The notes under the pieces were generated by a model. The model was not told where the DNA came from. It made no database searches and worked only from the letters and a program-made list of their open reading frames with translations. A stretch of DNA of 64,000 nt. It comes from Dehalococcoidia bacterium. Lineage in GTDB: Bacteria; Chloroflexota; Dehalococcoidia; Lucifugimonadales; UBA2985. The stretch is from positions 2,589,057 to 2,653,056 of the forward strand of contig OZ253466.1 of assembly GCA_965261605.1 (NCBI GenBank). The letters are read 5' to 3'. Shown here piece by piece: positions 36,451-54,977 of the stretch. Numbering within the stretch: position 1 is the first letter of the stretch; each line of letters opens with the position of its first letter. The position numbers and the translations under genes were made by a program.

Positions 36451-36765
36451 ACCGTCAGCCCTGCGCCCGCGGCGCGGCTGGAGTGAAGGTGGGCGCCTGC
36501 CCGGCAGTACCGGAACGGGCGGTTGAGGTTGAGTAGGTAAAACTCGGGGGGAGCGGGGTACGCGACAAGGCGCGGCCATAGGCCGCGCTCCGGGCGATCC
36601 GGGTGGCGATGGACGGCACACAGGTCATGCCGTTGGAACTCCTTTTTCTATTGGCCTGACGGCCCGGTGTGTCGAGCCGGTCAAAAGACAGATTCGCACC
36701 ATCTGATCGATAGACCAGCGCTGCGACCGCCGTCTCCACTCCGACGAGGATTGGGATTCCTCATC

Positions 36766-37248
36766 TACCGGTGCGGGTCATCGCTCCTCTTTCACCTACC
36801 GTCGTATGATTGCCTGGACCTCTCGTCGCCCATGGCGCGACTGGCCGCCTGTATAGTAGCCTGCACCTAACGTAAATCGTAGCCTACGCCTACGTATATC
36901 GTATCGAGCCGCCAAGCCGGATATAAGGATCAAACGCCCTATTTGCATTAGGCATTTGTCTACAGGGCTTGTGTAGTCAAATGAACCTACAAACATAGGC
37001 CTGTGCCCATATTGCGGACGCGCCAGCCCTAGAGGACAATTGGCCGGTATTGGCTCAATGACTATGCAGGACGGGCAGAGGACATCTGAAGCTACAGCAT
37101 CGGCAATGTCAGTCGTGCGAGACGACCAAACGTGTGCCTGTTAGGGACCGACCAGTCCTTAAGTAAGTACGGCGCTGCTTGACGATGTTGAACGTCACAC
37201 CGACTTAGTAACTCGCGGTATTCACGAAACGGGCGCCTTTCTGAGGGC
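36766..37248 (-). promoter_or_regulatory. Conserved promoter/leader module, copy 1 (upstream of the giant gene)
   Basis: Reverse complement aligns to ~45394-45700 and ~53294-53697; boxes at 36996-37009, 36974-36987, 36949-36962; TACGAT -10 candidate. Confidence 0.8.
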
Positions 37249-37314
37249 CGTACCAGACGGCCTGGCCCAACGAGCCACGCACCGGCTACGGGTTTCAAAG
37301 GCCGAGACGCCAGA

Positions 37315-37480
37315 GCCAGGACGGGGGACCCGGTGTCGCTCAACCGGGAGGCGAGACGGATCGTCAAGAGATTGCGCCGCAAGCTGGGCGACGACCCAGG
37401 CAGCCCCACTTACATCCTCACCGAGCCCAGCGTCGGCTATCAGATGGAGGAGGGCGAGGGCCCGGAGACGGGAGGAGTCA
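37315..37480 (+). pseudogene. Internally deleted, inverted remnant of a hybrid-kinase paralog
   Basis: ARTGDPVSLNREARRIV|KRLRRKLGDDPGSPTYILTEPSVGYQMEEGEGPE joins PAS-start to wHTH-end at ATCGTCAA microhomology. Confidence 0.75.
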
Positions 37481-37668
37481 TAGGAAATCTCCTATTCATA
37501 CCCTGGCCATCGTTGCAGCGGCTGCATGCCGCTTTGTGGACGCGCGCCCTGTTGGTAGGATCGTCTTCGTAGACCCAGTAAATCATCGTTCCTCTTCTGT
37601 TTCTCGCCCCGTCATTCAGACGAGGGGAACCTACAGGGCATCAGAGGGTAGAACCTACCCTCTGTGCT

Positions 37669-40107
37669 CTAGGAGACTTCCTGTGCCTCCGACCGCTCCG
37701 GCCCCTCACCCTCCTCCATCCGGTAGCCGACGCTCGGCTCGGTGAGGATGTAGGTGGGGCTGCCTGGGTCGTCGCCCAGCTTGCGGCGCAACCTCTTGAC
37801 GATGTTTCTCACCGGCCCGGAGCCTTCACCCTGGTCCGGACCCCAGACCCGTTGCAGCAACTGGTGGTTGGTCAGTACGCGGCCTGCGTTGGCCGAGAGC
37901 TCGACCAGCATCCGGTACTCAATGCCGGTGAGCGCGACGGGGCGTCCGGCCACCGTCACCCTGCGCCGCGCATAGTCGACGGTCAGGTCTCCCCGCACGT
38001 AGGGATCGGAGGGCTGCGCCACCTCCGGCGCCGCACGCTTGCGCAGGGCGGCCCTGATCCTGGCCGCCAGCTCCGTCGGAGAGAAGGGCTTGACCACGTA
38101 GTCGGCCGCTCCCATGTCGAAGGCCCTGGCCACGACCTCGTCCTGGCCGTAGGCTGACAGGAAGATGACCGGCACGTCGGAGACTTTGCGGATCTCCTTC
38201 ATCAGCTCCATGCCGTCGCTGCCCGGCAGCATCAGGTCCAACAGGACTAGGCGGGGCGATTCCTCCGCCATGAGGCGGGAGACCTCCTCCGGGTCTCCGG
38301 TCACGACGGGCGTGTAGCCCGCCTTGGTGAGCGCGTCCCGGACGTGCCGGAGCGTCTGCGGGTCGTCGTCCACGCAGAGAACGCGGGGCCGCTCCATGGC
38401 CTTCGTCTTGCGCCGGCGTGACGGCCGAGCGGCGAGGGTGACGGCCTCCTCCACCGCCGGAACGGTGAAGGTGAACCGGCTTCCCAGGCCCGGCCCGTCG
38501 CTCTCGGCCCGGATGCGGCCTCCGTGGGCCTCCACGATCCCCTTGCAGATGGCCAGGCCCAGGCCCGACCCTCCGATCTCCCGTCCCCGCTCCTCGCCGT
38601 CGAGCCGCGAGAACTTGCGGAACAGGTGCGGCAGCCGCTCGGCGGGCACGCCCACGCCCACGCCCACGCCCACGCCGTCGTCTGCCACCGAGAAGGCGAC
38701 GTGGACGCCATCCCGCACGGCGGCGACCCGGATGGCGGACAGCTCGTTCGAGTGCCTGGCCGCGTTGGACAGCAGGTTGTTCAGCACCTGGACGATGCGC
38801 CGCCGGTCCGCCATGACCCGGGGCAGGTCCGGCGGCAGGTCGATGACGAGGTTGCTCCTTCCGCCCCCGCTCTGGAACCTGCTCCTGGCCTCGTCCACCA
38901 GGGTCGCCACATCGGCGGGTTCGGGCGCGACCGGCAGGGCGCCCGTCTCGATGCGGGCCACGTCCAGCAGGTCGCTTATCAGGTAGCGCATGCTCTCGGA
39001 CTGGTCGCGAATGATCCGGTGGAACTGCGTCATCTCGGCGGGGTCCAGATCCGGCGATGCCTCCAGCAGGGTGTCCGCCGATCCCTTGATGGCGGCCAGA
39101 GGAGTCCTAAGCTCGTGGCTCACCATGCCCAGGAACTCGGCCCGCAGCCGCTCCAGCTCCTCCACCGGCGTCATGTCCTGCATGGTCACGACCACCGACT
39201 CGACCTCCCCCTCCTCGGAGCGGATGGGGGTGGCGTTGACCAGCGTGGTGACGCTCCGCCCGTCGGGGGCCTGGAGGACGATCTCCTCGGCCCGCACCGT
39301 CTCCCCAGTGCTCAGCCCCTGGGCTAGGGGGAACTCCTCCAGGGAGACCTCCCGCCCGTCGGCCCGCCGAAAGGTCAGCACCTCCAGTAGCTGCTCCGCC
39401 GAGCCGCCGGGGGCGCACAGGTCGTTGACGATCCGTCTCGCCTCCCGGTTGACCGACGTCACGCCGCCCGTCTTCGCGTCGAAGACCAGGACGCCCACGG
39501 GAGTGGTGTTCACCAAGGTCTCCAGGTCGGTCCTGGCCCGCCGCTCCTCCCGGTGCCTGCGGGCGTTGGCGATGACCAGCGCCGCCTGGGAGGCGAACAT
39601 CACCAGGGTTTCCTCGTCCTCGGGGGTGAACTCCACCTCTTTCTCGCCGACGTAGAAGGCGCCGACGCACTCTCCCAGGTGGCGTATGGGCGCGGCCAGG
39701 AAGGTCAGAACGGGGCTGACCGCCATGGGGGGGGGGCGGAACTCGGGAAGGCCCAGCGCCCTGGTGTGGCTGTGGAAGTCCTTGAGCCTGAGCGGCTCGG
39801 TAATCCGGCTGAGGTACTCGAAGAAGATCAGCCCTTCGGGCAGCTCCACAAACCGCCGGTGGTCCTCTGAAGTCAGCCCGGAGGTTACGAAGTCCTGTAT
39901 CCGCCCCGACTCATCCAGGAGGGTGATGACACCGTAGCGGGCGCCGGTCAGGGAGCAGGCGGAGTCCAGCGCCCCCTGCAACACCGTCTCGAAGTCCAAG
40001 CTTTCGTTGATGCGCAGGCTGGCCTCGCTCAGCCTGGAGAGGCGGTCGCGAAGGGCCTCGTTCTCCCGCTCCAGCTCCTCGGCGTTCTTCATCCTCTCGA
40101 CCTCCAT
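37669..40107 (-). CDS. Fused sensor/regulator: GAF-PAS-HisKA-HATPase-REC-OmpR wHTH
   Basis: FLGMVSHELRTPL, QVLNNLLSNAA, GSGLGLAICK, LVLLDLMLP, DYVVKPF, C-terminal TYILTEPSVGYR; no TM segments. Confidence 0.92.
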   Translation of the reverse strand: MEVERMKNAEELERENEALRDRLSRLSEASLRINESLDFETVLQGALDSACSLTGARYGVITLLDESGRIQDFVTSGLTSEDHRRFVELPEGLIFFEYLSRITEPLRLKDFHSHTRALGLPEFRPPPMAVSPVLTFLAAPIRHLGECVGAFYVGEKEVEFTPEDEETLVMFASQAALVIANARRHREERRARTDLETLVNTTPVGVLVFDAKTGGVTSVNREARRIVNDLCAPGGSAEQLLEVLTFRRADGREVSLEEFPLAQGLSTGETVRAEEIVLQAPDGRSVTTLVNATPIRSEEGEVESVVVTMQDMTPVEELERLRAEFLGMVSHELRTPLAAIKGSADTLLEASPDLDPAEMTQFHRIIRDQSESMRYLISDLLDVARIETGALPVAPEPADVATLVDEARSRFQSGGGRSNLVIDLPPDLPRVMADRRRIVQVLNNLLSNAARHSNELSAIRVAAVRDGVHVAFSVADDGVGVGVGVGVPAERLPHLFRKFSRLDGEERGREIGGSGLGLAICKGIVEAHGGRIRAESDGPGLGSRFTFTVPAVEEAVTLAARPSRRRKTKAMERPRVLCVDDDPQTLRHVRDALTKAGYTPVVTGDPEEVSRLMAEESPRLVLLDLMLPGSDGMELMKEIRKVSDVPVIFLSAYGQDEVVARAFDMGAADYVVKPFSPTELAARIRAALRKRAAPEVAQPSDPYVRGDLTVDYARRRVTVAGRPVALTGIEYRMLVELSANAGRVLTNHQLLQRVWGPDQGEGSGPVRNIVKRLRRKLGDDPGSPTYILTEPSVGYRMEEGEGPERSEAQEVS
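38647..38676. repeat. (CACGCC)5 hexanucleotide SSR in the kinase G1 box
   Basis: Encodes DD-GVGVGVGVGV-P. Confidence 0.9.
39727..39736. repeat. G10 homopolymer (C10 on the coding strand) in the kinase GAF domain
   Basis: TTC CGC CCC CCC CCC ATG, currently in frame. Confidence 0.9.
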
Positions 40108-40338
40108 TCAAGTATGGACGGCCCGCGATTCCCCTCGTCCTGGGCGTCCTGGTGGCCTCATTATAGCGGCCATGCGGCCATTTACACAACTCAGATTGGT
40201 CCTGAATTGGTACCGCAATGGTCACAATTCTACTGACTTTACACGGCCTTCTCAGTCATAGTCATGGGCAGTGTGCCCCAACTTTCGGCGGGGGAGGTCC
40301 GATTGTCATCACGAGCGCATGTATTTGGGAGGACAGGT

Positions 40339-42502
40339 ATGGAGCGGATGCACAGCATAAATCGGGCCTTGGGCCTGTTGGGGCTTGCCGGCCATATTGG
40401 CGATGCTCTTGGTAGCATGCGGAGGCGAGGAGAAGCCCACCGCGCCGTCGGCCCAGCGACAGCCGGAGGCGACCCCCACTGTTGAGGCGATGATGGAGGA
40501 AGCAACCGCCACGCCGGTTCCGATCCCAACGGCGACGCCCAGACCGACAGCTACACCACGGCCTACCGCCACTCCAACGCCTACACCTATACCCACCGTG
40601 ACTTCTCTGGAAGTTGCGGAGATGACGCCTCTGACGTCCATCGGCGAGAAGGTGCAGCTTCCTGTGACTGCCAACATGTCGGATGGCTCAAGTCAGGTTG
40701 TTGAAAGCGGGCTGGTGCAGTGGCAGTCCTCCGATCCTTGGGTGGCGTCGGTGTCGGAGGGGATAGTCACTGCCGCCGGGGGTGGAAACGCAGTGATTAC
40801 CGCGGCCTACGAGGGGCGAAACGTGGAAGCGCTTGTGTCCGTGCGAATCTCGACGAGGTCCACGGGCACCGTTCGAGTCATTTACGCAATCCCGGCAGAT
40901 CGCGAGTTCCGGACAGACGCCAGCGAGGCAATTGCCCACGCCATTGTGGATCTGCAATCCTGGTACCGCCGAGAACTCGGCGGGCTGACGTTTTCGCTGT
41001 ACGAGGCCACGCCTGAGGAGTGCCGGATGAGCGAGCCGGCGGATTTCTACGGACGCGGCGACGCCTGGGCCAAAGTAATGGAGGGCGTGCAGCACTGCGC
41101 ACCGGTGCAACACGACCACCCGGATTTCGTGTGGGCTGTCTACGTTGATGTGAAAGAATCATGCGATGAGCCCCATGAGTTGGGCAGAGGAGGGGCTGGC
41201 CTCACCATTATGGGGGATGTCGCGAGTGGCTTCGATCCAGGAGAGTTCTACTACTGTGACGAGGGGCCGTATGAGCGAACACTTGGAGGCGTGATTGGCG
41301 GACTCGGGCACGAGCTAGGCCATACGCTGGGACTTCCGCATCCGCCGGGGTGTGACCCATGGGACCCGGCGACATGCGACGACCTGGAATTCCGGTCACT
41401 CATGCACCTCGGGTTCACATCTTACCCAGACACCTATCTGCTTCCCGACGAGAAGGAGGTCCTGATCCGTTCGTCGTTCATCGTGGGAGGACCTGCGCCT
41501 GCGCGCAATGCGTTCGATGCCTCGAACGCATCGAGGGTTCAGGGCGTAGCGATGGGGCTGGATGGCAATCCAGTGGAAGGTCTCCGGGTCTCGCTGGCAG
41601 CCGAAACCTTCTGGAATTGGGGAGAGGCCGGTCAGGACTGGACATTCGAGATTCCTCTGCCCGAAGGCTCGTCAGGCCCAACTATCCTGAGCATCCACGC
41701 GGGCGACGCTGGGGACTGCGGATGGTTGGGGTACTACGGCCCTGGCGGGATCACGACACTGCGCGCACAGGCGACACGAGTCGAGATAGGCGACGGAAAC
41801 GTGGCTGGCATTGAGATACGGCTCCCTGTTAACGCGGACGATCTGTGCCTTGGGCAAAGGAAGGGAACCGGTATAGTGCTGGGTCCGGACGGTAGGCCAG
41901 TCGAAGGAATCTGGTTAGGAGCAGTTGATGGATGGCTCCGGACCGGGGTGGATGGAACTTTTGAATTCTCTGTCCCTGAAGGCTGGGTAGGCTCTTCTAT
42001 CCTGAGCATCCACGCCGACGAAGTTCCAGACTGCGGGATGGTGGGATACTACGGACCCGGGGGGTTCACAACGCGGCTCGAAGATGCATCGCTTGAGATA
42101 GGCGGTATCGGAGCCACGGGCATCGAGATACGGCTGCCGGCCACCCCGGATGATTTATGCAGCAAACAGTACATGGTGAGCGGAGCAGTGCTGGGGCCGG
42201 ACGGCGAACCGGTTGCAGGGATCTGGATCGAGCTAGCAGCCGAAGCATTCTGGAGTTGGGGAGTGACCGGTCAGGATGGAACCTTCGAGATACGCCTGCT
42301 CGATGGCTGGTCCGGCGCGCCCATTCTGAATATTCACGCTGGCGAAGTTGCAGGCTGCGATTTGGTGGGATACTACGGACCCGGCGGGTTCACGTCGCTA
42401 AGCGAAGAAGCGACGCGGGTCGAGGTCGGCGACGCCGATGTGACCGGAATCGAGATAAGGCTTCCGGCCAGCCCGGATGAATTGTGCAACCGGCAAGGGT
42501 AG
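40339..42502 (+). CDS. Lipoprotein metzincin-like metalloprotease with Big_2 domain and three C-terminal repeats (possible +1 frameshift in the signal peptide)
   Basis: HELGHTLGLPH + SLMH Met-turn; lipobox LVAC; RBS-backed ATG at 40339 joins the 40385 frame if one G of 40380-40383 is removed. Confidence 0.82.
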
Positions 42503-42999
42503 ATGGACGCTTGGAGGCAGGGGCTGTCAGGTAAAAGCGCTGCATCATCTACACCGTCAGCCTGAACCTGGGTATGAAGGTTCTTGATTTTGTCCAGTTT
42601 GGTGGGCCAACGTGGATGGTAGGTGGCGCCATCTTCAAGATGTGGTTGGGCGCTCTCTGAGCCCACCGAGGCCCTCGGCCTGGACATTGTGGTGCGCTGG
42701 GGCGGAGGAACGGAATTGTCTGAGGAGCGCCTCGGTATGGTTCATTCAGCTCTGGCGTCTCGCCTGCGAAACCCGTAGCCGGTGCGTGGCTCGTTGGGCC
42801 AGTCCGTCTGGTGCGGCGCTCCCGGTGGTTGATCTCTCAGTTATCCAAGGTGTCGGTTCCTCGACGGTTGTTCGAGGGAGTGTTGGATCGTCTCGGCCGG
42901 TTATCGTCGGCGCCAAGCTGAGGAGAGTACAACCACTGAGCCTGAAAACTGCCTTTAATTGGTCGTTCTGCCTGATCTGTGAAGAGGCTAGAGACCAAG

Positions 43000-43040
43000 G
43001 TATAGGCATATGCCTATACGCAGTGAGGTTCATATGCCCT
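43000..43040. promoter_or_regulatory. Perfect 20-bp palindrome plus second box upstream of the two-component operon
   Basis: GTATAGGCATATGCCTATAC (43000-43019) and GGTTCA-TA-TGCCCT (43027-43040). Confidence 0.75.
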
Positions 43041-43207
43041 TGATGCCTTCCATTCCTTGGGCTACATTCTAGGATATGAATCAATGCTGGACGGGTATTT
43101 CCACCTAGTCGGTTTGACTTCTTTGACCCTTTCCTCTCGAGGCTGAGCCCACCGCCCCGGGTAGAGGGACACATCTCATTCCAGCCGCAATCTGATGGAG
43201 ACGAGTC

Positions 43208-44425
43208 TTGAATCCAGTTAGCACAGCCGCCAGCGCGTTTCCAGCCTTCCTGCGGAGCCTCGACCTGCCGGAGCCGGGCGAATTGCGCCGTGTGGCCAAG
43301 GTCTATGTCTGGGCACGCTGGTTCGTCTGGGCTCTTTCCACGTTCGCCTGGCTGTACCCACCCGACGCCGCCGATGCGGGATATCCGCCGAACGTAGCCC
43401 TTGCAGCGCTGCTGTTCGCCACCAACGGATACCTGCACTACCGGCTCGCCACGGAAAGGACTGTGACCTGGCGGTGGATGCTTGCGCTAAATGCCCTGGA
43501 CCTGGCGATGCTAAGCGCCGGCGTTGTGGCGCACCGCGGGTTCGAGACCCCCTTCTTCGTGGGGTATTACCCATTCCTCGCCATTTTCGCGGTGGTCTTC
43601 GGATCGGTCAGGCTCACTCTCGTCTGGGTTACAATGACGGCAGTCGTCTACGCAGCGCTCTGCCTCGCGGTCGAGCCCGGGTTGGATTTCTCAGTGGACG
43701 ATGAGGAGGTATTGCTCATAAGGGTTGCCGGAATGTACCTGGTGGTGGTGGTCGTCAACCTGATCTCCAGAGTGGAGCGGATCAGGAGGATGGAGGCGGT
43801 GGATGGCATGAGAGAGCTTCAGAGGGAGCGCATCGAGCTCTCTCATGCCATCCACAACACGATGGCCCAGACCGGCTACATGATCGGGCTGGGCATTGAG
43901 AGGGCGAAGGAGCTTGCCGACCGGTCGAACGAGGGCCTGATGTCTACGCTTGAAGAGACCGCAGCCCTGTCTAGGTCGGCGATGTGGGAGCTCAGGCACC
44001 CGATGGAGATCGGGGAGATCTTCGAGGGCATGGAGCTTGGCGGGGCGCTGGAGTCGCTGGTGGCGACCTTCTCGACCATCTCCTCCATTCCTGCCGACCT
44101 GGCGCAGTCGGGCGTCGAACCGCCCCTGCCCACCGCAACGCGGGGCGCGCTGTTCTCCATCGCTTTCAACGCCCTGACCAACGCGCTCCGCCACTCCAAC
44201 GCAAGTCATGTCCGCGTCGGCCTCGACTTCGAGCGCGACGGTCTGCGGATGTCGATTTCCGACGATGGGACCGGTCTCCCTGATGACTACGAATCACGGG
44301 GCCAGGGCTTCAGGAACATGAGGGAGGACGCTGAGCGCATGGGCGGCAGGCTTGTCGTGGAGACGAGCGGGTCCGAATGGAGAACCACGGTGACCTGCGT
44401 GATTCCCTATGAGCGCATGACATGA
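43208..44425 (+). CDS. Membrane sensor histidine kinase (HisKA_3/NarX-like class)
   Basis: 5-6 TM helices; ERIELSHAIHNTMAQ H-box; NALTNALRHS, ISDDGTG, GQGFRNMRE. Confidence 0.9.
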   Translation: MNPVSTAASAFPAFLRSLDLPEPGELRRVAKVYVWARWFVWALSTFAWLYPPDAADAGYPPNVALAALLFATNGYLHYRLATERTVTWRWMLALNALDLAMLSAGVVAHRGFETPFFVGYYPFLAIFAVVFGSVRLTLVWVTMTAVVYAALCLAVEPGLDFSVDDEEVLLIRVAGMYLVVVVVNLISRVERIRRMEAVDGMRELQRERIELSHAIHNTMAQTGYMIGLGIERAKELADRSNEGLMSTLEETAALSRSAMWELRHPMEIGEIFEGMELGGALESLVATFSTISSIPADLAQSGVEPPLPTATRGALFSIAFNALTNALRHSNASHVRVGLDFERDGLRMSISDDGTGLPDDYESRGQGFRNMREDAERMGGRLVVETSGSEWRTTVTCVIPYERMT

Positions 44426-44440
44426 GAGGAGGGAGCTGAA

Positions 44441-45106
44441 ATGCCTTCAACACCGGTCAGAGTCTTGCTGGTGGATGATCACCCGGTCATCCGGGACGGT
44501 CTCCAGCAACTGCTGGAACGAACAGGCGAGTTCGAGGTGGTGGGACACGCAGGCGACGGAGAGGAGGCGGAGCGGATGGCGAAGGACCTTGTCCCTGACC
44601 TCGTCATCATGGACGTGCTGATGCCGGGCAGGGACGGCATAGATGCGTGCCGTGAAATCATGGACGCGCTGCCGGACGTGAGATTGCTCATACTAACCGC
44701 TTCCACTGAAAAGAACGCCGTCATAGAGGCAGTGGCCGCCGGCGCCGACGGATACCTTCAGAAGTTCACCGGGACGGAGCAGCTGTTGGCTACGGTCAGG
44801 GACGTCGCCAAAGGCGAATACCGGATGCCGCGCGACGCCATGAGACGCGTGTTCGGGCGATTGCGCAACGCCCCGAGGCAGAGTGTGCCTTCAAAGCGGC
44901 GCGGGCTCACAGAGCGGGAGCGGGAGATACTCACACAGTTCGCAAAGGGCATGTCGTACTCCGCCATTGCCGAGTCCAGGGGCAACCGGCCTTCGACAAT
45001 CCGCAACACCATCTACAGCATACAGAACAAGCTGGGATTCGAAAGCAAGCAGGAGGTCGTCGTCTGGGCCGTTCAAAACGGACTGCTGGATTTAGATCCG
45101 AATTAG
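44441..45106 (+). CDS. NarL/LuxR-family response regulator
   Basis: VLLVDDHP, IMDVLMP, GYLQK; LTEREREIL..GMSYSAIAE HTH. Confidence 0.95.
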   Translation: MPSTPVRVLLVDDHPVIRDGLQQLLERTGEFEVVGHAGDGEEAERMAKDLVPDLVIMDVLMPGRDGIDACREIMDALPDVRLLILTASTEKNAVIEAVAAGADGYLQKFTGTEQLLATVRDVAKGEYRMPRDAMRRVFGRLRNAPRQSVPSKRRGLTEREREILTQFAKGMSYSAIAESRGNRPSTIRNTIYSIQNKLGFESKQEVVVWAVQNGLLDLDPN

Positions 45107-45121
45107 CCCCCATCTCAGATT

Positions 45122-45700
45122 CGGCCCATGACCATCATGCGTAAGGAACCCCTGTTCCAGCGCTACCCTCAGCCTCTGCCCTCAATCAGGGACTCGGTCA
45201 GGCGCTGGAGGTTGTCATTCAAGCTCAGCTGAATTTCTTCCACACCAATTCCCCCAAAACTCGACAATGCCTCCACCGCCCGCCCGTCGCCGATAGCAGA
45301 CTTACTCCACGTTCAACACACTCCCGGTCCACCTGTTGTCGTTCTGGGTACAGGTCCAGATGGCGATGAATATCACTTGCGCTACGTTTTCCGCCCTCGG
45401 AAAAGCGCCCGTTTCGTGAATACCGCGAGTTACTAAGTCGGTATGACGTTCTACATCGTCAAGCAGCGCGGTACTTAAGAACCGGTCGGTCCCAAAGCTG
45501 TACCCCCGGATGTCCTCTGCCCGTCCTTAGTCATAGAGCCAATACCGGCCAGTTTCCGGCCAGGGCTAGCGCGGCCGCGATATGGGCATAAGCCTCTGTT
45601 GTAGGTTCATTTGCCCACACATGCCCTATGGACACATGCCTAATGCAAATTGGGCGTTTGATCCTTATATCCGGCTTGGAAGCTCACTACGATTTACGTT
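45122..45700 (+). promoter_or_regulatory. Conserved promoter/leader module, copy 2
   Basis: Near-identical to 53024-53455 then homologous to ~53597; boxes at 45583-45596, 45604-45617, 45629-45642; TGACG-N8-CGTCA at 45444-45461. Confidence 0.82.
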
Positions 45701-45807
45701 GGCAAGGGTTGCTCTATGTAGGGAAGGCAAAAGTCAATTTCGACATACAGTCTGTCAATGAGGCACAGAGCCGTTACGAAGCCCTAAGGAGCGTATGCAA
45801 GAGGGGC

Positions 45808-48438
45808 ATGGAATGTCTAAGGGTTTCGTCTGTCCTAGTTGTTGCCTTCATCGTTGTTGCGTTTGTGATGGTTCTCTCGGTCTCGGCGCAGTCGCCCGAC
45901 CCGGAGCCTGTGCCCACGCCGCCGGATGAGGAACGTGACACGCCAGAGCCGACGGCAGAGCCGAAGGATGACGAGGACGACGATGGCGGCAGCCCCCCAC
46001 CAACGGCCACTCCTTACCTATGTATACCCTGGCCCTATTGTAACTGGCGGCCGACAGCTACGCCTGTGCCTACGGCTACGCCAATACCTACAGCTACGGC
46101 CACACCCTACGAAAGTTGCTGGAGGCCCGGCCCACAATGTACCTATCCGACCAACACTCCAGCGCCTACAGCGACGTCGAGTCCGACCTCCACGCCGACC
46201 CCGGAGCCGACGGATACTCCCAGACCTACGAAGCCGCCGCCCACCCAGAGGCCGACTTGTGACAGGTCGGCGGATCCGGTTTGTCCACCGACCGCAACGC
46301 CCATCGAGGACGACCTTCTTACCCCAACTGCCACTACGAGGCCAAGGCCAACAGCTACCGACGGGTACGACCCAACCCCGATACCACCTACACCTATCCC
46401 GCCTACTGCGATACCGCCTACTGCGATACCACCCACGGCAGTCCCACCTACGCCCGTCCCGCCTCCGGGCCCAACACCGCCACCCACGCCGCTAGTCCTG
46501 TCTCGGGTCGACCCGCCTGCGTTCTTAAAGGGGAGTGTGGGTGACAACAATATGCTTGTACGGTGGACTACTCTGCCACTTAATGCGGTGGACTACCAGC
46601 TGCGTTACCGGAAGAAGAACGGGACTTGGACTTGCCCGGACAACCCACAGCCGGGTCAGTCGTGCATATCTGTGAGCGCGGAGGAACGACGGGAACGCCA
46701 AAAGGATATTGAAGATCTGGACAGCGAGGCTACCTACGAGTTCCAGGTGCAGGCAAAAGGAGATGGGACTAGCTTCTCGGCGGAGTGGGGCGCTTGGTCT
46801 GACTCTTTTGAGACGTTCACGGGGCCACCGCCCAGACCTGCCAAACCAGCACTCGGAAGGAAAACGGACAGGAGCGTGACAATATCGTGGCCTCCTGTAG
46901 AAGGCGCAAGCTTCTATGACCCGGACGTGCGTCAAAGTCGGGTTAACTCCTGGTATAGAGATGAGGACGATGTTGACGTAACCGCAAACAATGAAACCCA
47001 TACAGAGTCTGGACTCAGACCCAATACCGAATATGAGTTCAGGGTACGAGCCAAGGGTGATGGGTCCAGGTATACAAAAACCTTTGGAGACTGGAGTAGA
47101 ACGCTGAGGGTTAGAACAATGCCGCCCCTGTCTTCGGCCGATCCACCTGCACTCACGGCGGGTAGCGTGGGGGACCACTCTGTGACGATAACTTGGGATT
47201 CCGACGATGCGTTAGTTTATGACTTGGAGTACGCGGAGTCCTCGGCGGTTTTAGGGAGTTGGACGGACCGGCTTCTTGGAACGTCAAACTCCGGCCAGGC
47301 GCGTTTTAGTAGCTTGGCGGAAGAAACATCCTACCATTTCAGAATTCGAGCGAGAGGGAAAAAGAACTACACTGGCTCGGCCTACTCTACGGAGTGGAGT
47401 CGGTATAGCTCCACCATTTCGGTGTACACCGGCCCACCGCCCGCCCCACGCTCTCCGGTGGTATCGAGCACAACAGAGACAAGTGTTATTATATCGTACG
47501 GCCCAGTGGGCGGTGCCACCTATCAGGTCCAGTATCGCAAGACCACCACTGATGATTCAGGCAGCTGGGACCCGTATGCGCCAGGCGCACCAGTAACGGG
47601 GTCCCTTTTCCAGGTGGACGGACTCGATTCCGGCACGGAATACGATTTTCAGGTGCGAGCCGTGGGCGACGGCTCTTGGTATAAGGCGGAGGCCGGGGAC
47701 TGGAGCGAGCCGTCGCTGGTAGTCAGGACAGCGGGGTTCACGGCGGCGTTTGATGCACCACCGCGAACGGGCCTCTGCGCTCGGCCCCGGAATGCGACCG
47801 TGGTAGGGCCCTGGGAGGAGCACAGGTCGGCCAACGGCACAATGATTCAAGCGAGAGCCGAGATATGGACGAGGCTCGACGCTAATAATAGGTCAGACAC
47901 CTACACCTTCTATTGCGTTCAGACACGATACACAAGCAAGGCTGAGTCCGGCGCGGACGCTCTCACCTGGTCAGGACGCCCGCTCAAGACCGTGGCGTCA
48001 ATATCGCCGTCGGACGTTACTAATCCAGATAACTTGACTCTGGGGGCAATAGACAGGCTGTACGCCTCCGTACCCAAAACAGAGGGAGCGAGGAGGATAG
48101 GCAATACCAAGTCCTACACCTGTCCGTATCCTTGCAAGGGCGGAACGATTCAGCAGACGCCCGAAGAGATGATTCCTCGAAATTACATCAAGACGATCAC
48201 CATCTACGCGGAGGGAACCCACACATTCACCAAAACCGGCGTCAGCCACACTCTCACGAGCGACGCTTCCTGGGTGATGCCGAATCAGGGGATGTATCTG
48301 CTTTACGGAGAGCTGCCCGAAACTCACGGGGCATTGATGATCAGCAGGTACTGGGCGAATATGGCCCTGGAAATTGCCTCAGACGGGATACCCAATGAAA
48401 CGGTGTCAAGAATGGTTGAGCTGCTGAAAGGACGCTAG
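45808..48438 (+). CDS. Secreted protein: Pro/Thr/Cys-rich stalk, four FnIII domains, unknown C-terminal domain
   Basis: Signal peptide ..VLSVSAQS; (PTAIP)n repeats; LxxxTEYEFxVRAxGDG..W motifs; ORF open from 45628 but that part lies in the leader repeat. Confidence 0.82.
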   Translation: MECLRVSSVLVVAFIVVAFVMVLSVSAQSPDPEPVPTPPDEERDTPEPTAEPKDDEDDDGGSPPPTATPYLCIPWPYCNWRPTATPVPTATPIPTATATPYESCWRPGPQCTYPTNTPAPTATSSPTSTPTPEPTDTPRPTKPPPTQRPTCDRSADPVCPPTATPIEDDLLTPTATTRPRPTATDGYDPTPIPPTPIPPTAIPPTAIPPTAVPPTPVPPPGPTPPPTPLVLSRVDPPAFLKGSVGDNNMLVRWTTLPLNAVDYQLRYRKKNGTWTCPDNPQPGQSCISVSAEERRERQKDIEDLDSEATYEFQVQAKGDGTSFSAEWGAWSDSFETFTGPPPRPAKPALGRKTDRSVTISWPPVEGASFYDPDVRQSRVNSWYRDEDDVDVTANNETHTESGLRPNTEYEFRVRAKGDGSRYTKTFGDWSRTLRVRTMPPLSSADPPALTAGSVGDHSVTITWDSDDALVYDLEYAESSAVLGSWTDRLLGTSNSGQARFSSLAEETSYHFRIRARGKKNYTGSAYSTEWSRYSSTISVYTGPPPAPRSPVVSSTTETSVIISYGPVGGATYQVQYRKTTTDDSGSWDPYAPGAPVTGSLFQVDGLDSGTEYDFQVRAVGDGSWYKAEAGDWSEPSLVVRTAGFTAAFDAPPRTGLCARPRNATVVGPWEEHRSANGTMIQARAEIWTRLDANNRSDTYTFYCVQTRYTSKAESGADALTWSGRPLKTVASISPSDVTNPDNLTLGAIDRLYASVPKTEGARRIGNTKSYTCPYPCKGGTIQQTPEEMIPRNYIKTITIYAEGTHTFTKTGVSHTLTSDASWVMPNQGMYLLYGELPETHGALMISRYWANMALEIASDGIPNETVSRMVELLKGR

Positions 48439-48440
48439 AG

Positions 48441-49163
48441 ATGAGTAAGACAAAGAGCGGAGTCGCTTTCATCGTAATTGCCGCCGCCATCGCCGGCGCA
48501 GTCTACCTGTGGATGGTCGCTAACACTCCAGAGGTTAGCGGCCAATTGGTTCCAAGTGGAGCGTGTGTCGAAACGGACGCTGTGGTCTCCTACGACATCG
48601 ACGTTATCGACACTGAAGTCTCTGACGGACAAACATTTCGCATGAGACGTCAGATCAGCATTTCAGGCAGGGACTTTCACTCAATCACATCAGACTTGGC
48701 TGGAACCTGGAAAACGGAGACCAAGCAGGTAGGTGGAGTCGGGTATATACGCACGGGGGTCGGCACTGAAGAGACCCTCTGGCAACGTCTGGAAAGGCCA
48801 CTTAACGACATTACAAGGAACGATGCAGGACTTGGCTCCAATCCAATGTGCCCTGATGTAAGCCGGTTTCGGAGGATAGGTTCGGAGCGGGCGGCAGATG
48901 GCACCGATCTGAGGCGATACACGGACGCGCCGGAAGACGGTTCAAGGGCCGCAATGCGATCAGCACCAGGGCTACCTAGCGGGCAACGGTCAGTTCAGCA
49001 GGAGGTCCTAGTAGACCAGCAAGGCCAGCTACGTGAGCTTCGGATAGACGAGGAATTGCGCTACATCGAAAATGGGACTCCAGTTCATTCAACATTCCGT
49101 CGGAAAGAGACGTTTTCCGGCATCGGCGAGGCCAACGAGATCACGGCGCCGGTCGTACCTTAG
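48441..49163 (+). CDS. Membrane-anchored protein, LppX/LolA-like fold suspected (cassette 1)
   Basis: N-terminal TM; 2 nt after the upstream stop; C-terminus FSGIGEANEITAPVVP. Confidence 0.7.
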   Translation: MSKTKSGVAFIVIAAAIAGAVYLWMVANTPEVSGQLVPSGACVETDAVVSYDIDVIDTEVSDGQTFRMRRQISISGRDFHSITSDLAGTWKTETKQVGGVGYIRTGVGTEETLWQRLERPLNDITRNDAGLGSNPMCPDVSRFRRIGSERAADGTDLRRYTDAPEDGSRAAMRSAPGLPSGQRSVQQEVLVDQQGQLRELRIDEELRYIENGTPVHSTFRRKETFSGIGEANEITAPVVP

Positions 49164-49283
49164 CTGGATGATGTCAGTCGGTGTCTTGGCATAGAATGGC
49201 AATGGCTAGCAGCCTGTCCGAGAAACACGGTTGGCGAGTGGTTGGGGGTATGATGGGTCCAGTCCAGTAGCGGGGAGTTGTTG

Positions 49284-50750
49284 ATGAGCAAGACCTACCT
49301 TCCCTACGAACCCGACCAGCAGTTGCTGTTGCCGGCGGCGTTGCAGGAGTGGCTGCCTGACGACCATCTGGCCTACTTCATATCCGACGTGGTGGACCAG
49401 TTGGACATGTCGGAGGTCACCGCTCGCTACGAGCGGGAACGGCGTGGCGGGCCTCCGTATCATCCACGGATGATGGTCAAGGCGCTGCTCTACGGCTACT
49501 GCGTCGGGGTGGCGTCCTCACGCCGCATCGCCCAGCGTCTCCACGAGGACATCGCCTTCAGGGTGTTGGCGGCGAACAACACACCGGACTTCCGGACCAT
49601 CTCCGACTTTCGCAAGGATAATCTGGATGCGCTGTCGGGCCTGTTCATACAGGTACTGGCGTTGTGCCAGCAGGCGGGGCTGGTGAAGCTGGGGCACGTG
49701 GCGCTGGACGGCACGAAGGTCAAGGCCAACGCATCGAAGCATAAGGCGATGAGTTATGGACGCATGAAGGAGAGGGAAGCGCAGTTGGCGGCGGAGGTAG
49801 CGGAGTTGTTGCGACAGGCTCAGGCAACGGATGAAGAGGAAGACCGGCGGTACGGCAAAGACAAGCGTGGAGATGAGTTGCCGGAGGAGTTGGCCTTTCG
49901 AGAGGGTCGGTTGGAGAAGATACGGGAAGCCATGGCGGCGCTGGAAGCCGAGGCGCAGGCGGCTGCCGAACAGGCCGAGACCGAAGGTGGTAAGCTCCCG
50001 GGTGTGCCCGATGACAAGGCCCAGCGCAACTTCACCGATACTGAGTCGCGCATCATCCCCGCGCCTGGAGGAAAGGACTTCCTGCAAGGGTACAACTGTC
50101 AGGCGGTGGTGGACAGCGCTCACCAGGTGATCGTGGCGGCGCGGGCCACCAACCAGACTTCGGATAAGCAACAGGCTGCGGCGATGATGGAGGAGACCAT
50201 CGACAACGTCGGCGCAGTCCCCAGGGAAGTATCCGCCGATGCCGGCTACTACTCGGCAAAGGCAGTCGACGAGCTTTATGCTCTGGGCGTGGACCCGTTC
50301 GTCGCGCCGGAGCAGACCCGCCACGGCCGGGTTGTGCCACCCGCGCCCCGAGGTCGCATACCCAGCCATCTGTCCCCCAGGGACCGGATGCGACGGAAGT
50401 TACAGACCAAGCGGGGTCGGCAGCGCTACGCTTTGCGGATGCAAACTGTGGAGCCGGTATTCGGTCAGATCAAGCAGGGCCGGGGATTCCGGCAGTTCCT
50501 GCTGCGGGGACTGGAGAAGGTGAACGGCGAATGGTCGCTGATCTGCACGGGCCACAACCTGCTCAAACTGTTCCGCTTTGGGGTCAATCTGCACAGGAAA
50601 GCACGGGGCGATGGGCCAGCCCAACGCATCAGGAACTTTTGCCGAGGTAGTGAGCACGGCGCTATTCGCAAAGCTATCTGGGGGCTGGCCGGGGCAACCG
50701 GCACAATTAATTGTCGCGATCCATTGTCGCTGACCCGCAAGAACCGCTAG
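49284..50750 (+). CDS. IS1182 transposase
   Basis: YHPRMMVKALLYGY, PDFRTISDFR, ALDGTKVKANAS, ADAGY, VEPVFGQIK. Confidence 0.93.
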   Translation: MSKTYLPYEPDQQLLLPAALQEWLPDDHLAYFISDVVDQLDMSEVTARYERERRGGPPYHPRMMVKALLYGYCVGVASSRRIAQRLHEDIAFRVLAANNTPDFRTISDFRKDNLDALSGLFIQVLALCQQAGLVKLGHVALDGTKVKANASKHKAMSYGRMKEREAQLAAEVAELLRQAQATDEEEDRRYGKDKRGDELPEELAFREGRLEKIREAMAALEAEAQAAAEQAETEGGKLPGVPDDKAQRNFTDTESRIIPAPGGKDFLQGYNCQAVVDSAHQVIVAARATNQTSDKQQAAAMMEETIDNVGAVPREVSADAGYYSAKAVDELYALGVDPFVAPEQTRHGRVVPPAPRGRIPSHLSPRDRMRRKLQTKRGRQRYALRMQTVEPVFGQIKQGRGFRQFLLRGLEKVNGEWSLICTGHNLLKLFRFGVNLHRKARGDGPAQRIRNFCRGSEHGAIRKAIWGLAGATGTINCRDPLSLTRKNR

Positions 50751-51936
50751 GGAATCTCTGAATAACAGGACATCAGCCGGGTTTAAGTTGACTGTGCCTG
50801 TTTTGCGGAAATGTTCCGCCACCGATGGGGCGTCATAGGGACATTGGTGGCCTTGTACCGGCCCCACCAGGGGTCTCCAGCCGGAGTTGAGCCCACTGCT
50901 CCCACTTCAGGCCGCCAATCGGCTCTCGGCGGTCAACAAGTTACCCAATCCCAACAGCAGCGCCAGACGTTGGGTGTTCTTGGCCAGACCCCGGTAGCGG
51001 ACTTTGGCATAACCGAACAGCTGCTTCACCTTCAGGAAGGGATGCTCCACTTTGGCCCTAATGGATGCCTTGCGCTTCTCCGTCAAGGCAGCATTACTCC
51101 CCGGATCCAGTTGCCGCCGCCGCCCCGGCTTCATAGCCACCTGCCAATCCAACGCCAACTCCCGATTCTCCCACCTTTTCTCGACTCCCACGTACCCAGC
51201 ATCCCCCCATACCTGCGACTCTCCGCCGTGCAGCAACCGGTGGGCTTCGGTCACGTCATGCACGTTGGCCGGGGTCGTCGCTAAGCTGTGCACCACACCC
51301 GTATCCGCATCCACCCCAATATGCACTTTCATCCCAAAGTGATATTGGTTCCCCTTCTTGGTCTGGCGCATCTCAGGGTCTCGCGCCCCAGCCCGGTTCT
51401 TGGTGGACGACGGCGCTTCTATGATGGTGGCGTCCACTATGGTCCCTTCCCTCAGCCGCAGTCCCCGGGATTCCAGATAACCTTTGATCTCCTCAAACAG
51501 ACCCTCCCCCAACTCATGCTTCTCCAGGATATGACGGAAGTGCAGTATCGTGCTCTCGTCTGGCAGCGCCTCCGACAGCCGCAGTCCCACGAACCGCCGC
51601 ACCGACTCCGCCTCGTAGAGCAGGTCCTCCATCCCAGGATCGCTGAGATTGTAGAACAACTGCACGCAGTGAACTCTCAGCATCACCGACAAATCATATG
51701 GCTGACGCCCTCGACCAGCTTTAGGGTAATACGGGCGGATACGCTCCTCCAGACGCTGCCAAGGAATCAGACCATCCATCCGTTCCAGAAATACCTCCCG
51801 ACGGGTCCTCCGCTTCTTGCTCTCGTATTCCACGTCTGCAAATGTCGGCTGCTCCATCATCTCTTCACTCCTCCATCACCATTGTTTGCTCACCTCTATT
51901 ATAATGCCTCAACCCACAGACTTATTCAGAGATTCC
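50751..51936 (-). mobile_element. IS5 family (IS5 subgroup) element nested in IS1182
   Basis: TIR GGAATCTCTGAATAA at both ends; CTAG TSD at 50747-50750 and 51937-51940. Confidence 0.93.
50907..51860 (-). CDS. IS5 transposase
   Basis: PDESTILHFRH, IVDATII, YHFGMKVHIGVD, WGDAGY, IRAKVEHPF, RYRGLAKN. Confidence 0.95.
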   Translation of the reverse strand: MMEQPTFADVEYESKKRRTRREVFLERMDGLIPWQRLEERIRPYYPKAGRGRQPYDLSVMLRVHCVQLFYNLSDPGMEDLLYEAESVRRFVGLRLSEALPDESTILHFRHILEKHELGEGLFEEIKGYLESRGLRLREGTIVDATIIEAPSSTKNRAGARDPEMRQTKKGNQYHFGMKVHIGVDADTGVVHSLATTPANVHDVTEAHRLLHGGESQVWGDAGYVGVEKRWENRELALDWQVAMKPGRRRQLDPGSNAALTEKRKASIRAKVEHPFLKVKQLFGYAKVRYRGLAKNTQRLALLLGLGNLLTAESRLAA

Positions 51937-51970
51937 CTAGATAATCCTCGGACGGGCTGCTAGGATAGAG

Positions 51971-52721
51971 ATGCGCGTTCCCATAGCGGTAGGGGTCGTT
52001 ACGCTCCTAACGGCACTGGCGGTCGGCATCGTCTGGTGGCTCGCCCAAGGAGGGGAGACCTCCGAAGCCAGCGCGCAAGAGGTGCTGATAGAGGCTTGCG
52101 AGAAGGCGTCGGCCTCCTCTCACTTCGACATCATCACCACCACCACCGGGCCTGACCATGACGACACGTATTTCGCGGATGAGGGTCGCGAGCAACGCCG
52201 CCTGTATTGACTATCATCTGGTCGCCCACCTCCGCGAGAGGTCTACCTACATTGAGGCCATCTTTGCAGATGGAAAGGCTTACTCCCGCGTGACTGAGCA
52301 ACAGGGAGAAGGCAAGTGGGAAAGGGATACCTCCAAGACGGTCACTGACTCACTGGTAGCGGGGAAGCTGGGCCTTGGGTCCCTGTCGGAAGGCAACATC
52401 GTCTGCCCGGAGCTACACAACACTTCCAAGGTCGGAACCGAAACCATTGAGGGCACGAAGACCACCCGCTACCACGACTCCTATTCGATTGACCAGGCGA
52501 AGTATATCTTTCCAGACGAAAAGGAGAGAGCCGGACGCACCTTCGTCGTTCACCACGCCTGGGATTTCTGGATCGATTCAACAGGCCTGTTGGTGCAGGT
52601 CAAGAAGGTCGATTCATATCCGCCCCTTGAAGGACACAGCGAGCGGCAGGTGTTTGAGGAAGTCACCACAATATCGGGTGTAGGGGAGACCAACACAATC
52701 ACGGCGCCGGTGGTACCGTAG
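51971..52721 (+). pseudogene. Paralog of 48441 gene (cassette 2), frameshifted near 52160-52200
   Basis: TM N-terminus in 51971..52210; remainder in 52158..52721 ending ISGVGETNTITAPVVP. Confidence 0.75.
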
Positions 52722-52774
52722 CCGGATGATGTCAGCCGGTGTCTTAGCATTGAATGGCAATGGCTAGGATAGAG

Positions 52775-53030
52775 ATGCGCGTTCCCATAGCGGTAGGGGT
52801 CGTCGCGGTCGCGGCGCTCGCTGCGGCGGGTGCGGCCTGGTGGCTTGGGGCTTGGCTCAGGAGACGCTCCGACGGAGGCCAGCGGCCAAGCGGTGGTTCA
52901 GAACGCCTGCGAGGTTGCGGAGGGTATGCGCAATTACGACATGCACACGGTTATGGACGGGCCGTTTGACAACGATCAGGGAACCCCAACGCCTCAGCGT
53001 ATAGAGCTGGATACAAGAGTTGCCGGCCCA
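52775..53030 (+). pseudogene. Truncated third paralog (cassette 3)
   Basis: Starts MRVPIAVGVV like cassette 2; frameshifted; cut at the start of leader copy 3. Confidence 0.7.
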
Positions 53031-53700
53031 TGACCATCATGCGTAAGGAACCCCTGTTCCAGCGCTACCCTCAGCCTCTGCTCTCAATCAGGACTCGATC
53101 AGGCGCTGGAGGTTGTCATTCAAGCTCAGCTGAATTTCTTCCACACCAGTTCCCCCAAAACTCGACAATGCCTCCACCGCCCGCCCGTCGCCGATAGCAG
53201 ACTTACTCCACATTCAACACACTCCCGGCCCACCTGTTGTCGTTCCGGGTACAGGTCCAGATGGCGATGAATATCATTTGCGCTACGTTTTCCGCCCTCG
53301 GAAAAGCGCTCGTTTCGTGAATACCGCGAGCTACTAAGTCGGTATGACGTTCTACATCGTCAAGCAGCGCCGTACTTAAGAACCGGTCGGTCCCAAAGCT
53401 GTACCCCCAGATGTCCTCTGCCCGTCCTTAGTCATAGAGGCAATACCGGCCAGTTTGCGGTCATGGCTGGGCGGCGATATGGGCATATGTCCATCTTGCA
53501 GCTTCAGTTGCCCATACGCTCCTGTAGACAAATGCCTAAATGCAAATTGAGCGTTTAAGCCTTATATCCGGCTTGGAGGATCACTACGATTTAAGTTGGT
53601 GAGGGCTAACTTGCAGGCGGCCAGCCTTGCTATGGGCAACGAGAAGTCCAGGCAATCATACGAGGTTAGGTGAGACGAGCGATGACCGGCGCCGGTAAAG
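53024..53700 (+). promoter_or_regulatory. Conserved promoter/leader module, copy 3
   Basis: Boxes at 53480-53493, 53501-53514, 53525-53538; distal ~85 nt shared with copy 1. Confidence 0.82.
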
Positions 53701-53711
53701 GAGGAACAACC

Positions 53712-54905
53712 ATGATGACTCGCATAGATAGACGACGATTCCCCATCCTGATCGCCGCCATAACGGCCTTGGCCCTGGCGGGCGCCGCGCTGGCCCTGCT
53801 CTTCTCCCCGGTGCAGGCGCAGGAGGGTGACGACGCGCCTGTGATAGCGTCGATTGAGATTGTCTCCGACCCCGGAGACGATGACACCTACCGGGCAGCG
53901 GACACCATCGAATTCAAGGTGTCTTTCAATGCCCGCGTTTACAACGTCGGTGGTAGGGCAACCCAGCTCAAATTCGTGATTGGCGATGAGGACAGAGTGG
54001 CCGGGTACAGCTACGGCTCCTCTAGCGAGTACTACTTTCAATACAACGTGAGATGGAACGATCATGACGACAACGGTATCTCGTTCAAGGCTGACGCGCT
54101 CGACCTGAATGGCGGCGCCCTTCAACGCTACGATGGATTGGCCCTGGACCTCTCCAGCGACGCTGTTCCGGACAATCCCGCGCACAAGGTCGATAGCGCT
54201 ATCACAGTGCTCTTGTATGGCGACCAATCCCCAGTGGTGAGCGAGAACACCTACCGCCTCATTGAGCTACGGTACAGCCAGGACAACCTCTTCTATGGAC
54301 AGGAGGACCCGACGTTCGGTTTGACGGGCGTCGACAGCGACGACTTCGTGATCACTGAGGAAGGGCTCCTCTCATTCAAGGTAACGCCCGATTTTGAGAA
54401 CCCTACCGATTCGGACGGCGACAACGTGTACGAATTCACGGTGACGGCATCTGTTCCAGGGCTGAGAGACGGCTCGCTGGACGTCATGTTGACTGTCACC
54501 AACGAGGTGGAGCCAAGCGATCCAGGCGCGCCTCCCATTGTACGCCATGTCGGAATCACTTCCTATCCGGAGAGTGACCAGACCTACCGGTTAGGAGATT
54601 CCATAAGCGTCAGGTTGAGATTCAGCCAGAGTGTCGCGGTAACAGGGACGCCACAGATCGAATTGAACGTCGGCGGCGAAGCCAGGACCGCCAACTACAG
54701 CAGTACCGATGGCGTGGATTTGACCTTCACCTACGTGGTCGCCGGTGGCGACAGGGACAGCAATGGCATAGGCGTAGTCGAGGATACGCTGACCCTGAAC
54801 GGCGGTTCCATCAGGAACCCGGATGGAGGAGCCGATGCTGTCCTGACTCATTACGCTATCTTCAACCAACCAGGGCAAAATGTGGACGCTTCCGGAGGAC
54901 TATAG
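53712..54905 (+). CDS. Secreted protein with Ig-like repeat modules and a cadherin domain
   Basis: AGGAGG RBS; signal MMTRIDRRRF..PVQA; PDFENPTDSDGDNVYEFTVTA cadherin motif; ends GGL. Confidence 0.85.
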   Translation: MMTRIDRRRFPILIAAITALALAGAALALLFSPVQAQEGDDAPVIASIEIVSDPGDDDTYRAADTIEFKVSFNARVYNVGGRATQLKFVIGDEDRVAGYSYGSSSEYYFQYNVRWNDHDDNGISFKADALDLNGGALQRYDGLALDLSSDAVPDNPAHKVDSAITVLLYGDQSPVVSENTYRLIELRYSQDNLFYGQEDPTFGLTGVDSDDFVITEEGLLSFKVTPDFENPTDSDGDNVYEFTVTASVPGLRDGSLDVMLTVTNEVEPSDPGAPPIVRHVGITSYPESDQTYRLGDSISVRLRFSQSVAVTGTPQIELNVGGEARTANYSSTDGVDLTFTYVVAGGDRDSNGIGVVEDTLTLNGGSIRNPDGGADAVLTHYAIFNQPGQNVDASGGL

Positions 54906-54977
54906 GCCTCTACGGAGCGCCCCGCAGCGCCAAGTGTCAAGTAAGGAGAACTCTAAGTGGCTTACGGGAGAAATTGG

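Follow-up and report, generated by a model that had tools for sequence, protein, structure and literature searches.

A predicted operator shared by a NarL/FixJ-family two-component operon and by copied promoter modules of surface-protein genes in a Dehalococcoidia bacterium

A stretch of 64,000 nucleotides from a Dehalococcoidia bacterium (hereafter the window; assembly GCA_965261605.1, contig OZ253466.1, positions 2,589,057 to 2,653,056 of the forward strand) carries the genes of a sensor histidine kinase and of a NarL/FixJ-family response regulator, together with three copies (A, B, and C) of a promoter-leader module, each lying in front of genes whose products have signal-peptide-like N-termini. 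The host genome, designated G000, is a single contig of 2,786,707 bp (2.79 Mb) with a G+C content of 59.5%. The kinase promoter and all three modules contain a phased 14-bp palindrome, TAGRCA-NN-TGYCTA (the box), and this box is likely to be the operator of the adjacent regulator. The features concerned are as follows, with positions given within the window and bits referring to the weight matrix described below.

29874-35669, minus strand: large target gene of module A, 1931 amino acids, five cadherin-like and four Calx-beta domains (Pfam)
35680-36450, minus strand: smaller target gene of module A, signal-peptide-like N-terminus and a cadherin-like domain; precedes 29874-35669
36776-37248, minus strand: module A; boxes 36996-37009, 36975-36988, 36949-36962, and 36927-36940; -35 at 36921-36926; -10 at 36898-36903
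43003-43016, plus strand: box a of the kinase/regulator promoter, core of the palindrome at 43000-43019, 22.9 of 23.2 bits
43027-43040, plus strand: box b of the same promoter, GGTTCATATGCCCT, 24 bp past box a, overlapping the first base of the -35
43040-43068, plus strand: putative promoter of the kinase operon, TTGATG, 17 bp, TACATT, read from the sequence and conserved in alignments
43208-44425, plus strand: sensor histidine kinase whose N-terminal part has about six hydrophobic segments; an external domain is not evident
44441-45106, plus strand: NarL/FixJ-family response regulator, receiver plus GerE-type helix-turn-helix (HTH)
45122-45713, plus strand: module B; boxes 45583-45596, 45604-45617, 45629-45642, and 45651-45664; -35 at 45665-45670; -10 at 45688-45693
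45808-48438, plus strand: target gene B, signal-peptide-like N-terminus and four fn3 domains (3.6e-28); start (MECLRV...) picked by eye
53024-53700, plus strand: module C; boxes 53480-53493, 53501-53514, 53525-53538, and 53548-53561; -35 at 53562-53567; -10 at 53585-53590
53683-54905, plus strand: target gene C, about 400 amino acids, RRRF-type signal-peptide-like N-terminus

The three module copies were recognized by a repeat search in the window and a three-way alignment, and blastn of 45122-45800 against the whole genome gave only these three places and no fourth copy, which bears out the first-pass annotation of this DNA, where a module of about 0.5 kb had been described three times. The native gap that follows the regulator gene constitutes module B, whose core (45574-45713) is the portion kept in other genomes. 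The identity between B and C is 97-99% over 45122-45489 and falls to 79-88% in the box/promoter part; the match of C to B starts 16 nucleotides past the regulator stop codon, and the leader of C, which is conserved up to the ATG at 53683, is instead A-like. Module A shares only the proximal ∼300 nucleotides (from ∼45393 in B coordinates), with 82-94% identity and a 42-nucleotide insertion. The module copies are thus mosaics. Metagenome contigs from four runs and two samples, inspected over 36000-54500, covered A, B, and C exactly and contained no convincing module-to-module joint; the joints in these contigs had only short sides (20-43 letters), which supports no conclusion on rearrangement.

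Each module copy contains four boxes. The first three, which had been located correctly from the outset, start at 45583, 45604, and 45629 in B (21 and 25 bp apart), at 53480, 53501, and 53525 in C (21 and 24 bp), and, on the minus strand, at 37009, 36988, and 36962 in A (21 and 26 bp). The fourth, overlooked in the first description and degenerate in G000, lies 22-23 bp past the third (45651-45664 in B, 53548-53561 in C, 36940-36927 in A) and came to light in alignments, first of 18 copies taken from four genomes and later of 48 distinct ones. It ends exactly at a weak -35 element, TTATAT, which is followed after 17 bp by the -10 element TACGAT (or TACTAT), so the conserved TACGAT with a poor -35 originally proposed was recovered here. 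At the kinase promoter, a perfect 20-bp palindrome occupies 43000-43019 and a second box follows, as had been reported for the region upstream of the operon (43000-43040), and the -10 in alignments is TACATT or TAAATT, 17 bp past TTGATG. In all four promoters, kinase promoter and modules alike, a box abuts or overlaps the -35 despite unrelated flanks; the promoter of the two-component system and those of its presumed targets share one motif at a fixed place relative to the core promoter. Assuming a transcription start ∼7 nucleotides after the -10, which would put the starts near 43075, 45700, 53597, and 36891, the proximal box would be centered near -42 to -44 in all four. In module A, a 23-nucleotide tandem duplication of the -10 region (36875-36903, minus strand) has produced two TACGAT motifs.

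The kinase matched HATPase_c with 43.6 bits (cut-off 26.4) and HisKA_3 with 21.4 bits, slightly below the cut-off of 24, and reached the cut-off of no NCBIfam equivalog, the best of them (MctS, MadS, UhpB, NarX, and LiaS) all being far below. The regulator matched Response_reg with 97.2 bits (cut-off 30.2) and GerE with 38.2 bits (cut-off 23.5), and its translation contains an acidic pocket (DD at 12-13) and the phospho-acceptor D58. With a receiver and a C-terminal HTH of the LuxR type, it belongs to the NarL/FixJ family, while its score against the NarL equivalog NF007935 (155 bits, under the cut-off of 250) marks it as a family member and not a NarL ortholog. By full-length sequence, the closest solved structures were DevR (2.1e-34), VraR (4.7e-33), and NarL (1.5e-31). 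NarL-family regulators bind inverted repeats as dimers, and a GerE-type dimer suits an inverted repeat such as the box.

In a set of 31 related genomes that includes G000, only four proved to have the module core, namely, G000, G001, G002, and G026, which are exactly the four with the regulator at at least 81% identity. From loci gathered across a wider species collection, we compared 44 kinase/regulator ortholog loci of 31 other Dehalococcoidia genomes with 23 paralog loci (53-64% identity). A box of at least 16 bits was present in 43 of the 44 ortholog loci (at the position of the kinase promoter in 35, downstream of the regulator gene in 34) and in 0 of the 23 paralog loci, searched anywhere in ∼8.6 kb; the paralog kinase promoters share another conserved promoter, one without the TAGRCA-NN-TGYCTA box. 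The regulator gene always adjoins the box, and its recognition helix reads ST(I/V)RNTI in orthologs of box-bearing loci and VT(I/V)RNAI in most box-less paralogs. The exact pattern occurs 3 times in G000, 21 times in G001, 2 times in G002, 4 times in G026, and 2 times in a fifth genome, G004, and a reversed-pattern control gave 0 in all five. In G001, the 21 exact sites are all accounted for by 12 modules and 4 kinase promoters, which are scattered along the chromosome. A lone perfect box of 22.8 bits lies in G026 (L128:1966; G026:C5:753465) beside transposase-like open reading frames (ORFs), outside any module.

Conservation across 33 distinct kinase promoters amounted to 0.58 bits in the upstream flank, 1.88 in the half-sites of box a, 0.97 at its central NN, 1.06 in the spacer, 1.54 in box b, 1.34 in the -35 to -10 region, and 0.68 downstream of the -10, and in the most distant orthologs, the flanks are unalignable and the palindrome and the -35 are retained. 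The pair in G004 is distant (regulator 54% and kinase 50% identical); the front of its kinase gene nevertheless carries a palindrome that is perfect over 16 bp, another box at a distance of 24 bp, and TTGACC, and its regulator keeps the RNT of the recognition helix. Within the modules, the values were 1.43-1.80 for the boxes, 0.96-1.35 for the spacers, 1.58 for the promoter, 1.31 for the leader, and 1.47 for the upstream part. The first-pass annotation had stated that boxes no better conserved than flanking repeat DNA would speak against its reading, and the comparison gave a sharp footprint in the kinase promoter but only a modest excess inside the modules. As a separate observation, G004 contains a ∼330-nucleotide duplicate of its kinase promoter, palindrome included, ∼4.4 kb away (L126:7694), with no ORF of at least 150 amino acids starting just after it on that strand.

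These data bear on a different explanation, in which the modules are merely the inherited 5′ regions of a duplicated surface-protein family and the palindromes are passengers or serve an unlinked factor. The modules are indeed conserved as a whole, beyond the boxes; they are mosaics, with C joining a B-like upstream part (97%) to an A-like leader, and some copies end in a signal-peptide start. However, the same palindrome recurs in the kinase promoter, amid unrelated flanks and with a sharp footprint, is kept in G004 at 50-54% protein identity, and is found in none of the 23 paralog loci. As for an unlinked factor, the other regulator nearby, a hybrid protein encoded at 37669-40107, has an OmpR-type domain, and its G001 relatives are located away from the kinase/regulator cassettes. 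Either form of this explanation is, on this evidence, improbable.

The genome was also scanned with a weight matrix, as had been suggested; it was trained on 126 boxes, all from genomes other than G000, and has a maximum of 23.2 bits. The top three matches in the 2.79-Mb genome were 43003, 53525, and 36949 (22.8-22.9 bits), that is, box a of the kinase promoter and the third boxes of modules C and A (22.8 bits each), and 5 of the top 8 matches lie in this locus. Matches of at least 16 bits numbered 10 against 0-7 in 10 simulations, and those of at least 19 bits numbered 4 against 0-2. The string TAGGCANNTGCCTA occurred in the whole genome 1 time exactly, 4 times with one mismatch, and 64 times with two mismatches, compared with 0, 1-4, and 42-66 in ten order-3 Markov simulations, indicating that single boxes are at background. 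Elsewhere in G000, a single 19.9-bit box (G000:C1:2778761; L021:11762) lies next to an ORF of the size of an insertion sequence (IS), 3 kb downstream from a paralogous gene of the NarL type, and a weaker pair of boxes, 25 bp apart and of 12.7 and 10.1 bits, lies at G000:C1:632612-632650; both may be extra sites or chance matches.

The genes behind the modules probably start at 36450 (A), 45808 (B), and 53683 or 53713 (C). The modules had been described as standing upstream of large secreted modular genes, a description that fits A and B but not gene C, which encodes only ∼400 amino acids and has no Pfam or NCBIfam domain. By eye, the genes behind all 18 modules of G000 and the three other genomes mostly encode hydrophobic, signal-peptide-like N-termini, and the domains downstream of the modules include, by Pfam, fn3, cadherin-like, Calx-beta, PPC, LRR, RCC1, and a subtilase with serpin, as well as a Cache-like protein. 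There are two exceptions, both in G001: module d, whose own leader is truncated, precedes a flavin oxidoreductase, and module g is followed by an inserted transposase-like ORF. The signal-peptide region of gene C (53703-53827) recurs with 90% identity at 62974-63098, the start of a gene at 62983, and no module precedes that gene according to blastn of the module against the whole genome.

The modules, first annotated as noncoding, are mostly so, but their 3′ end is a conserved ATG, which in some copies of other genomes (G001 f and j) starts the signal peptide. In module C of G000, the conserved ATG is in frame, 10 codons before the signal-peptide start, while in other copies, it opens a stretch of ∼40 codons, which in A meets an in-frame TGA at codon 7. 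This leader ORF is probably not a selected, translated gene, as differences are spread evenly over the three codon positions (66/70/67); five copies showed 31 synonymous versus 104 nonsynonymous codon differences. A structured leader RNA was likewise unsupported, since RNAalifold on 38 leaders predicted 14 pairs, of which 0 had a compensatory change, and an Rfam scan of 36000-54500 with E values up to 1 returned only a chance miRNA-like match.

Cassette DNA of G000 is 89% identical to that of G026, which belongs to a different family (rpoB 73%), and 86-90% identical to that of G001 and G002 (rpoB 97%). This pattern of similarity disagrees with rpoB and suggests that the cassette has been transferred horizontally. 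G001 contains four kinase/regulator copies (L015-L018), 93-96% identical to one another, and 12 modules, eight of them solo; a 3′ fragment of the regulator gene precedes 2 of the 8 solo modules. Why G001 should retain four redundant sensors that share one operator is a question that these copies raise.

Given such mobility, the palindromes or modules might instead serve as recombination substrates that swap or invert surface-protein genes, producing surface variation and not transcriptional control. Module A is oriented opposite to B and C, IS elements and mosaic modules are present in the locus, and the cassette has been duplicated and probably transferred, all of which would fit; yet in the loci examined, the cassette is not accompanied by any conserved recombinase gene, and every module has its own promoter elements, with boxes at a fixed distance from the -35. 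We regard this explanation as highly unlikely.

A coherent reading of the locus is that TAGRCA-NN-TGYCTA is the predicted operator of the adjacent regulator and that the pair drives its own operon as well as the surface-protein modules, which we consider likely from the sequence evidence. In the proposed mechanism, the membrane-embedded HisKA_3-type kinase (43208-44425) would phosphorylate the regulator (44441-45106). A strong palindrome, box 3 within the modules and box a upstream of the kinase gene, would be the binding site for regulator dimers, and additional dimers would fill the weaker neighboring boxes, up to the one abutting the poor -35, and the proximal dimers would recruit RNA polymerase in a class-II manner. 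The pair would thereby activate its own operon and three promoter-leader modules before secreted repeat proteins. The sequences, their positions, their conservation, and their co-occurrence are observed, while we infer that this regulator binds the boxes, that it activates and does not repress, where transcription starts, and what is sensed. The first-pass annotation had proposed an autoregulated NarL-family pair with a copied promoter module, and this proposal gains support from the co-occurrence of box and orthologs, the footprint in the kinase promoter, and the box at the -35, as well as from the secreted repeat proteins downstream, the multicopy module, and the mobile cassette.

Several observations weigh against this reading. 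There is no enrichment of the box in G000 outside the 17-kb locus, by either genome counts or the matrix scan, so that the top ranks of the locus sites were not accompanied by genome-wide enrichment, whose lack the first-pass annotation had named as speaking against its reading, and the predicted regulon here would consist of four promoters. Boxes 1, 2, and 4 are weak in G000, and in copy B, box 2 has 8.5, box 4 has 5.3, and even box 3 has only 16.3 bits. The modules alone do not single out the boxes, as the whole ∼250 nucleotides are conserved. Moreover, spacings of 24-26 bp do not correspond to an integral number of helical turns, some box-less paralogs also have RNT in the recognition helix (L083), and a scan of 42800-45850 for strict sigma-70 consensus promoters gave 0 sites. 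A search of RNA data sets listed none containing the locus. The Fisher test for co-occurrence of box and orthologs (p = 4.5e-17) is overstated, considering that the loci are related and that the box is physically linked to the genes.

The same regulator could also act on the same boxes mainly as a repressor, or in a dual manner, with the proximal box occluding the -35 until the signal relieves it. The sign of regulation is not readable from sequence alone, and the position of the proximal box, at or overlapping the -35 of each of the four promoters, would suit such a mode. However, poor -35 elements (TTATAT) and the absence of consensus promoters in the strict scan are typical of activator-dependent promoters, and the arrangement resembles that of BvgA-activated promoters, where, according to excerpts of PMC7250471, the proximal site abuts an imperfect -35. 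Mainly repressive or dual action is therefore unlikely, although slightly less so than the passenger explanation.

Beyond activation by the pair, the whole unit (operator, kinase, regulator, box array, promoter, and leader) appears to behave as a cassette that is duplicated within genomes and exchanged between lineages, leaving solo modules before further surface-protein genes. That such a self-contained, mobile, and multiplying cassette, with the signal-peptide start as its last part, seeds a regulon, inserting itself ahead of various eukaryote-like repeat proteins and so placing changing surface proteins under one membrane-sensed signal, is a more tentative proposal, to which we would give somewhat less than even credence.

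The remaining features of the locus, assigned by domain search where a family is named, are as follows.

37669-40107, minus strand: hybrid GAF-PAS-kinase-receiver-OmpR protein
40385-42502: gene of an Ig-like protein
49278-50750: IS element
54957-56192, plus strand: gene of a Cache-like protein, after gene C
56173-59352, plus strand: gene of a 1059-amino-acid protein with no family match

Beyond module A, at 37250-37500, there are inverted duplicates of pieces of the hybrid kinase gene (118 nucleotides at 91% and 53 nucleotides at 83% identity), whose partners are 37696-37813 and 39425-39477 and which resemble paralog debris. A 60-nucleotide repeat (92%) connects 42599-42821, ∼200 bp upstream of the kinase promoter, with 37243-37302 at the edge of module A and may be a widespread repeated element. 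In metagenome contigs, the depth of 42170-43403 was 10-30 times that of its neighbors, with many loose ends at 42608 and 42804. The IS element is flanked by duplicated 3′ ends and downstream parts of two small genes (49116-49209/52674-52767 and 51959-52006/52763-52810).

Among known systems, the bvgAS genes of Bordetella are autoregulated and adjoin fhaB. As far as excerpts of PMC7250471 describe it, the strong BvgA site at Bordetella fhaB is a 14-bp inverted heptad, from which further dimers proceed in ∼22-bp steps, and the last site abuts an imperfect -35. BvgAS, with its fhaB (Pfha) and ptx promoters, and the present system thus have in common a NarL/FixJ-family regulator and large surface adhesins or proteins as targets, in addition to a 14-bp inverted site, stepped dimers, and a proximal site at an imperfect -35, which are here known from sequence alone (PMC7250471, in excerpts). 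In contrast to BvgA, the half-site sequence differs and the spacings range from 21 to 26 bp instead of a constant 22; the kinase is a small multipass membrane protein of the HisKA_3 type and not a hybrid like BvgS, and a single genome may hold as many as 12 copies of the module and 4 of the two-component system. NarL, DevR (DosR), and VraR/LiaR resemble the regulator in their receiver-GerE order and full-length sequence matches, but the gene neighborhood here does not point to nitrate, hypoxia, or cell-wall stress, and no equivalog cut-off was reached.

In the vsp/vlp-type families of Mycoplasma, a conserved promoter, leader, and signal-peptide start are joined to diverse surface-protein bodies. 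The modules recall this arrangement of a conserved 5′ cassette on diverse bodies, but the cassette described here carries an operator array and its own two-component system, and no phase-variation repeat or invertase was seen. The regulators of reductive dehalogenase genes (rdhA) in Dehalococcoides, a member of the same bacterial class, are, as far as excerpts of the literature indicate, encoded beside accessory genes that they presumably control; here, by comparison, the targets are surface proteins and one operator is common to many promoters. A literature search returned no report on two-component control of surface-protein promoters in Dehalococcoidia, and a search on the half-site strings together with response regulators gave no relevant title among those listed (supplements excluded).

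Knowledge of gene regulation in uncultured Dehalococcoidia is minimal, and the locus offers a concrete candidate regulator-operator pair, with a 14-bp site at four predicted promoters in G000 and at up to sixteen in a related genome. The circuit is of an ordinary kind, although new for the little-known Dehalococcoidia, and what makes it more interesting is the copying of the module and the mobility of the cassette: the locus shows a predicted regulon growing through promoter-module copying, and a sensor-regulator-promoter cassette spreading across lineages. LRR, fn3, cadherin, and Calx-beta domains belong to the eukaryote-like proteins described as enriched in sponge microbiomes (PMC9531527, in excerpts), an overlap that we take as a lead and not as a claim on the habitat of this organism. 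If the proposed regulation is true and these bacteria are host associated, the system would offer the first way into the regulation of eukaryote-like repeat proteins of this sort (fn3, cadherin-like, LRR, RCC1, Calx-beta, and serpin).

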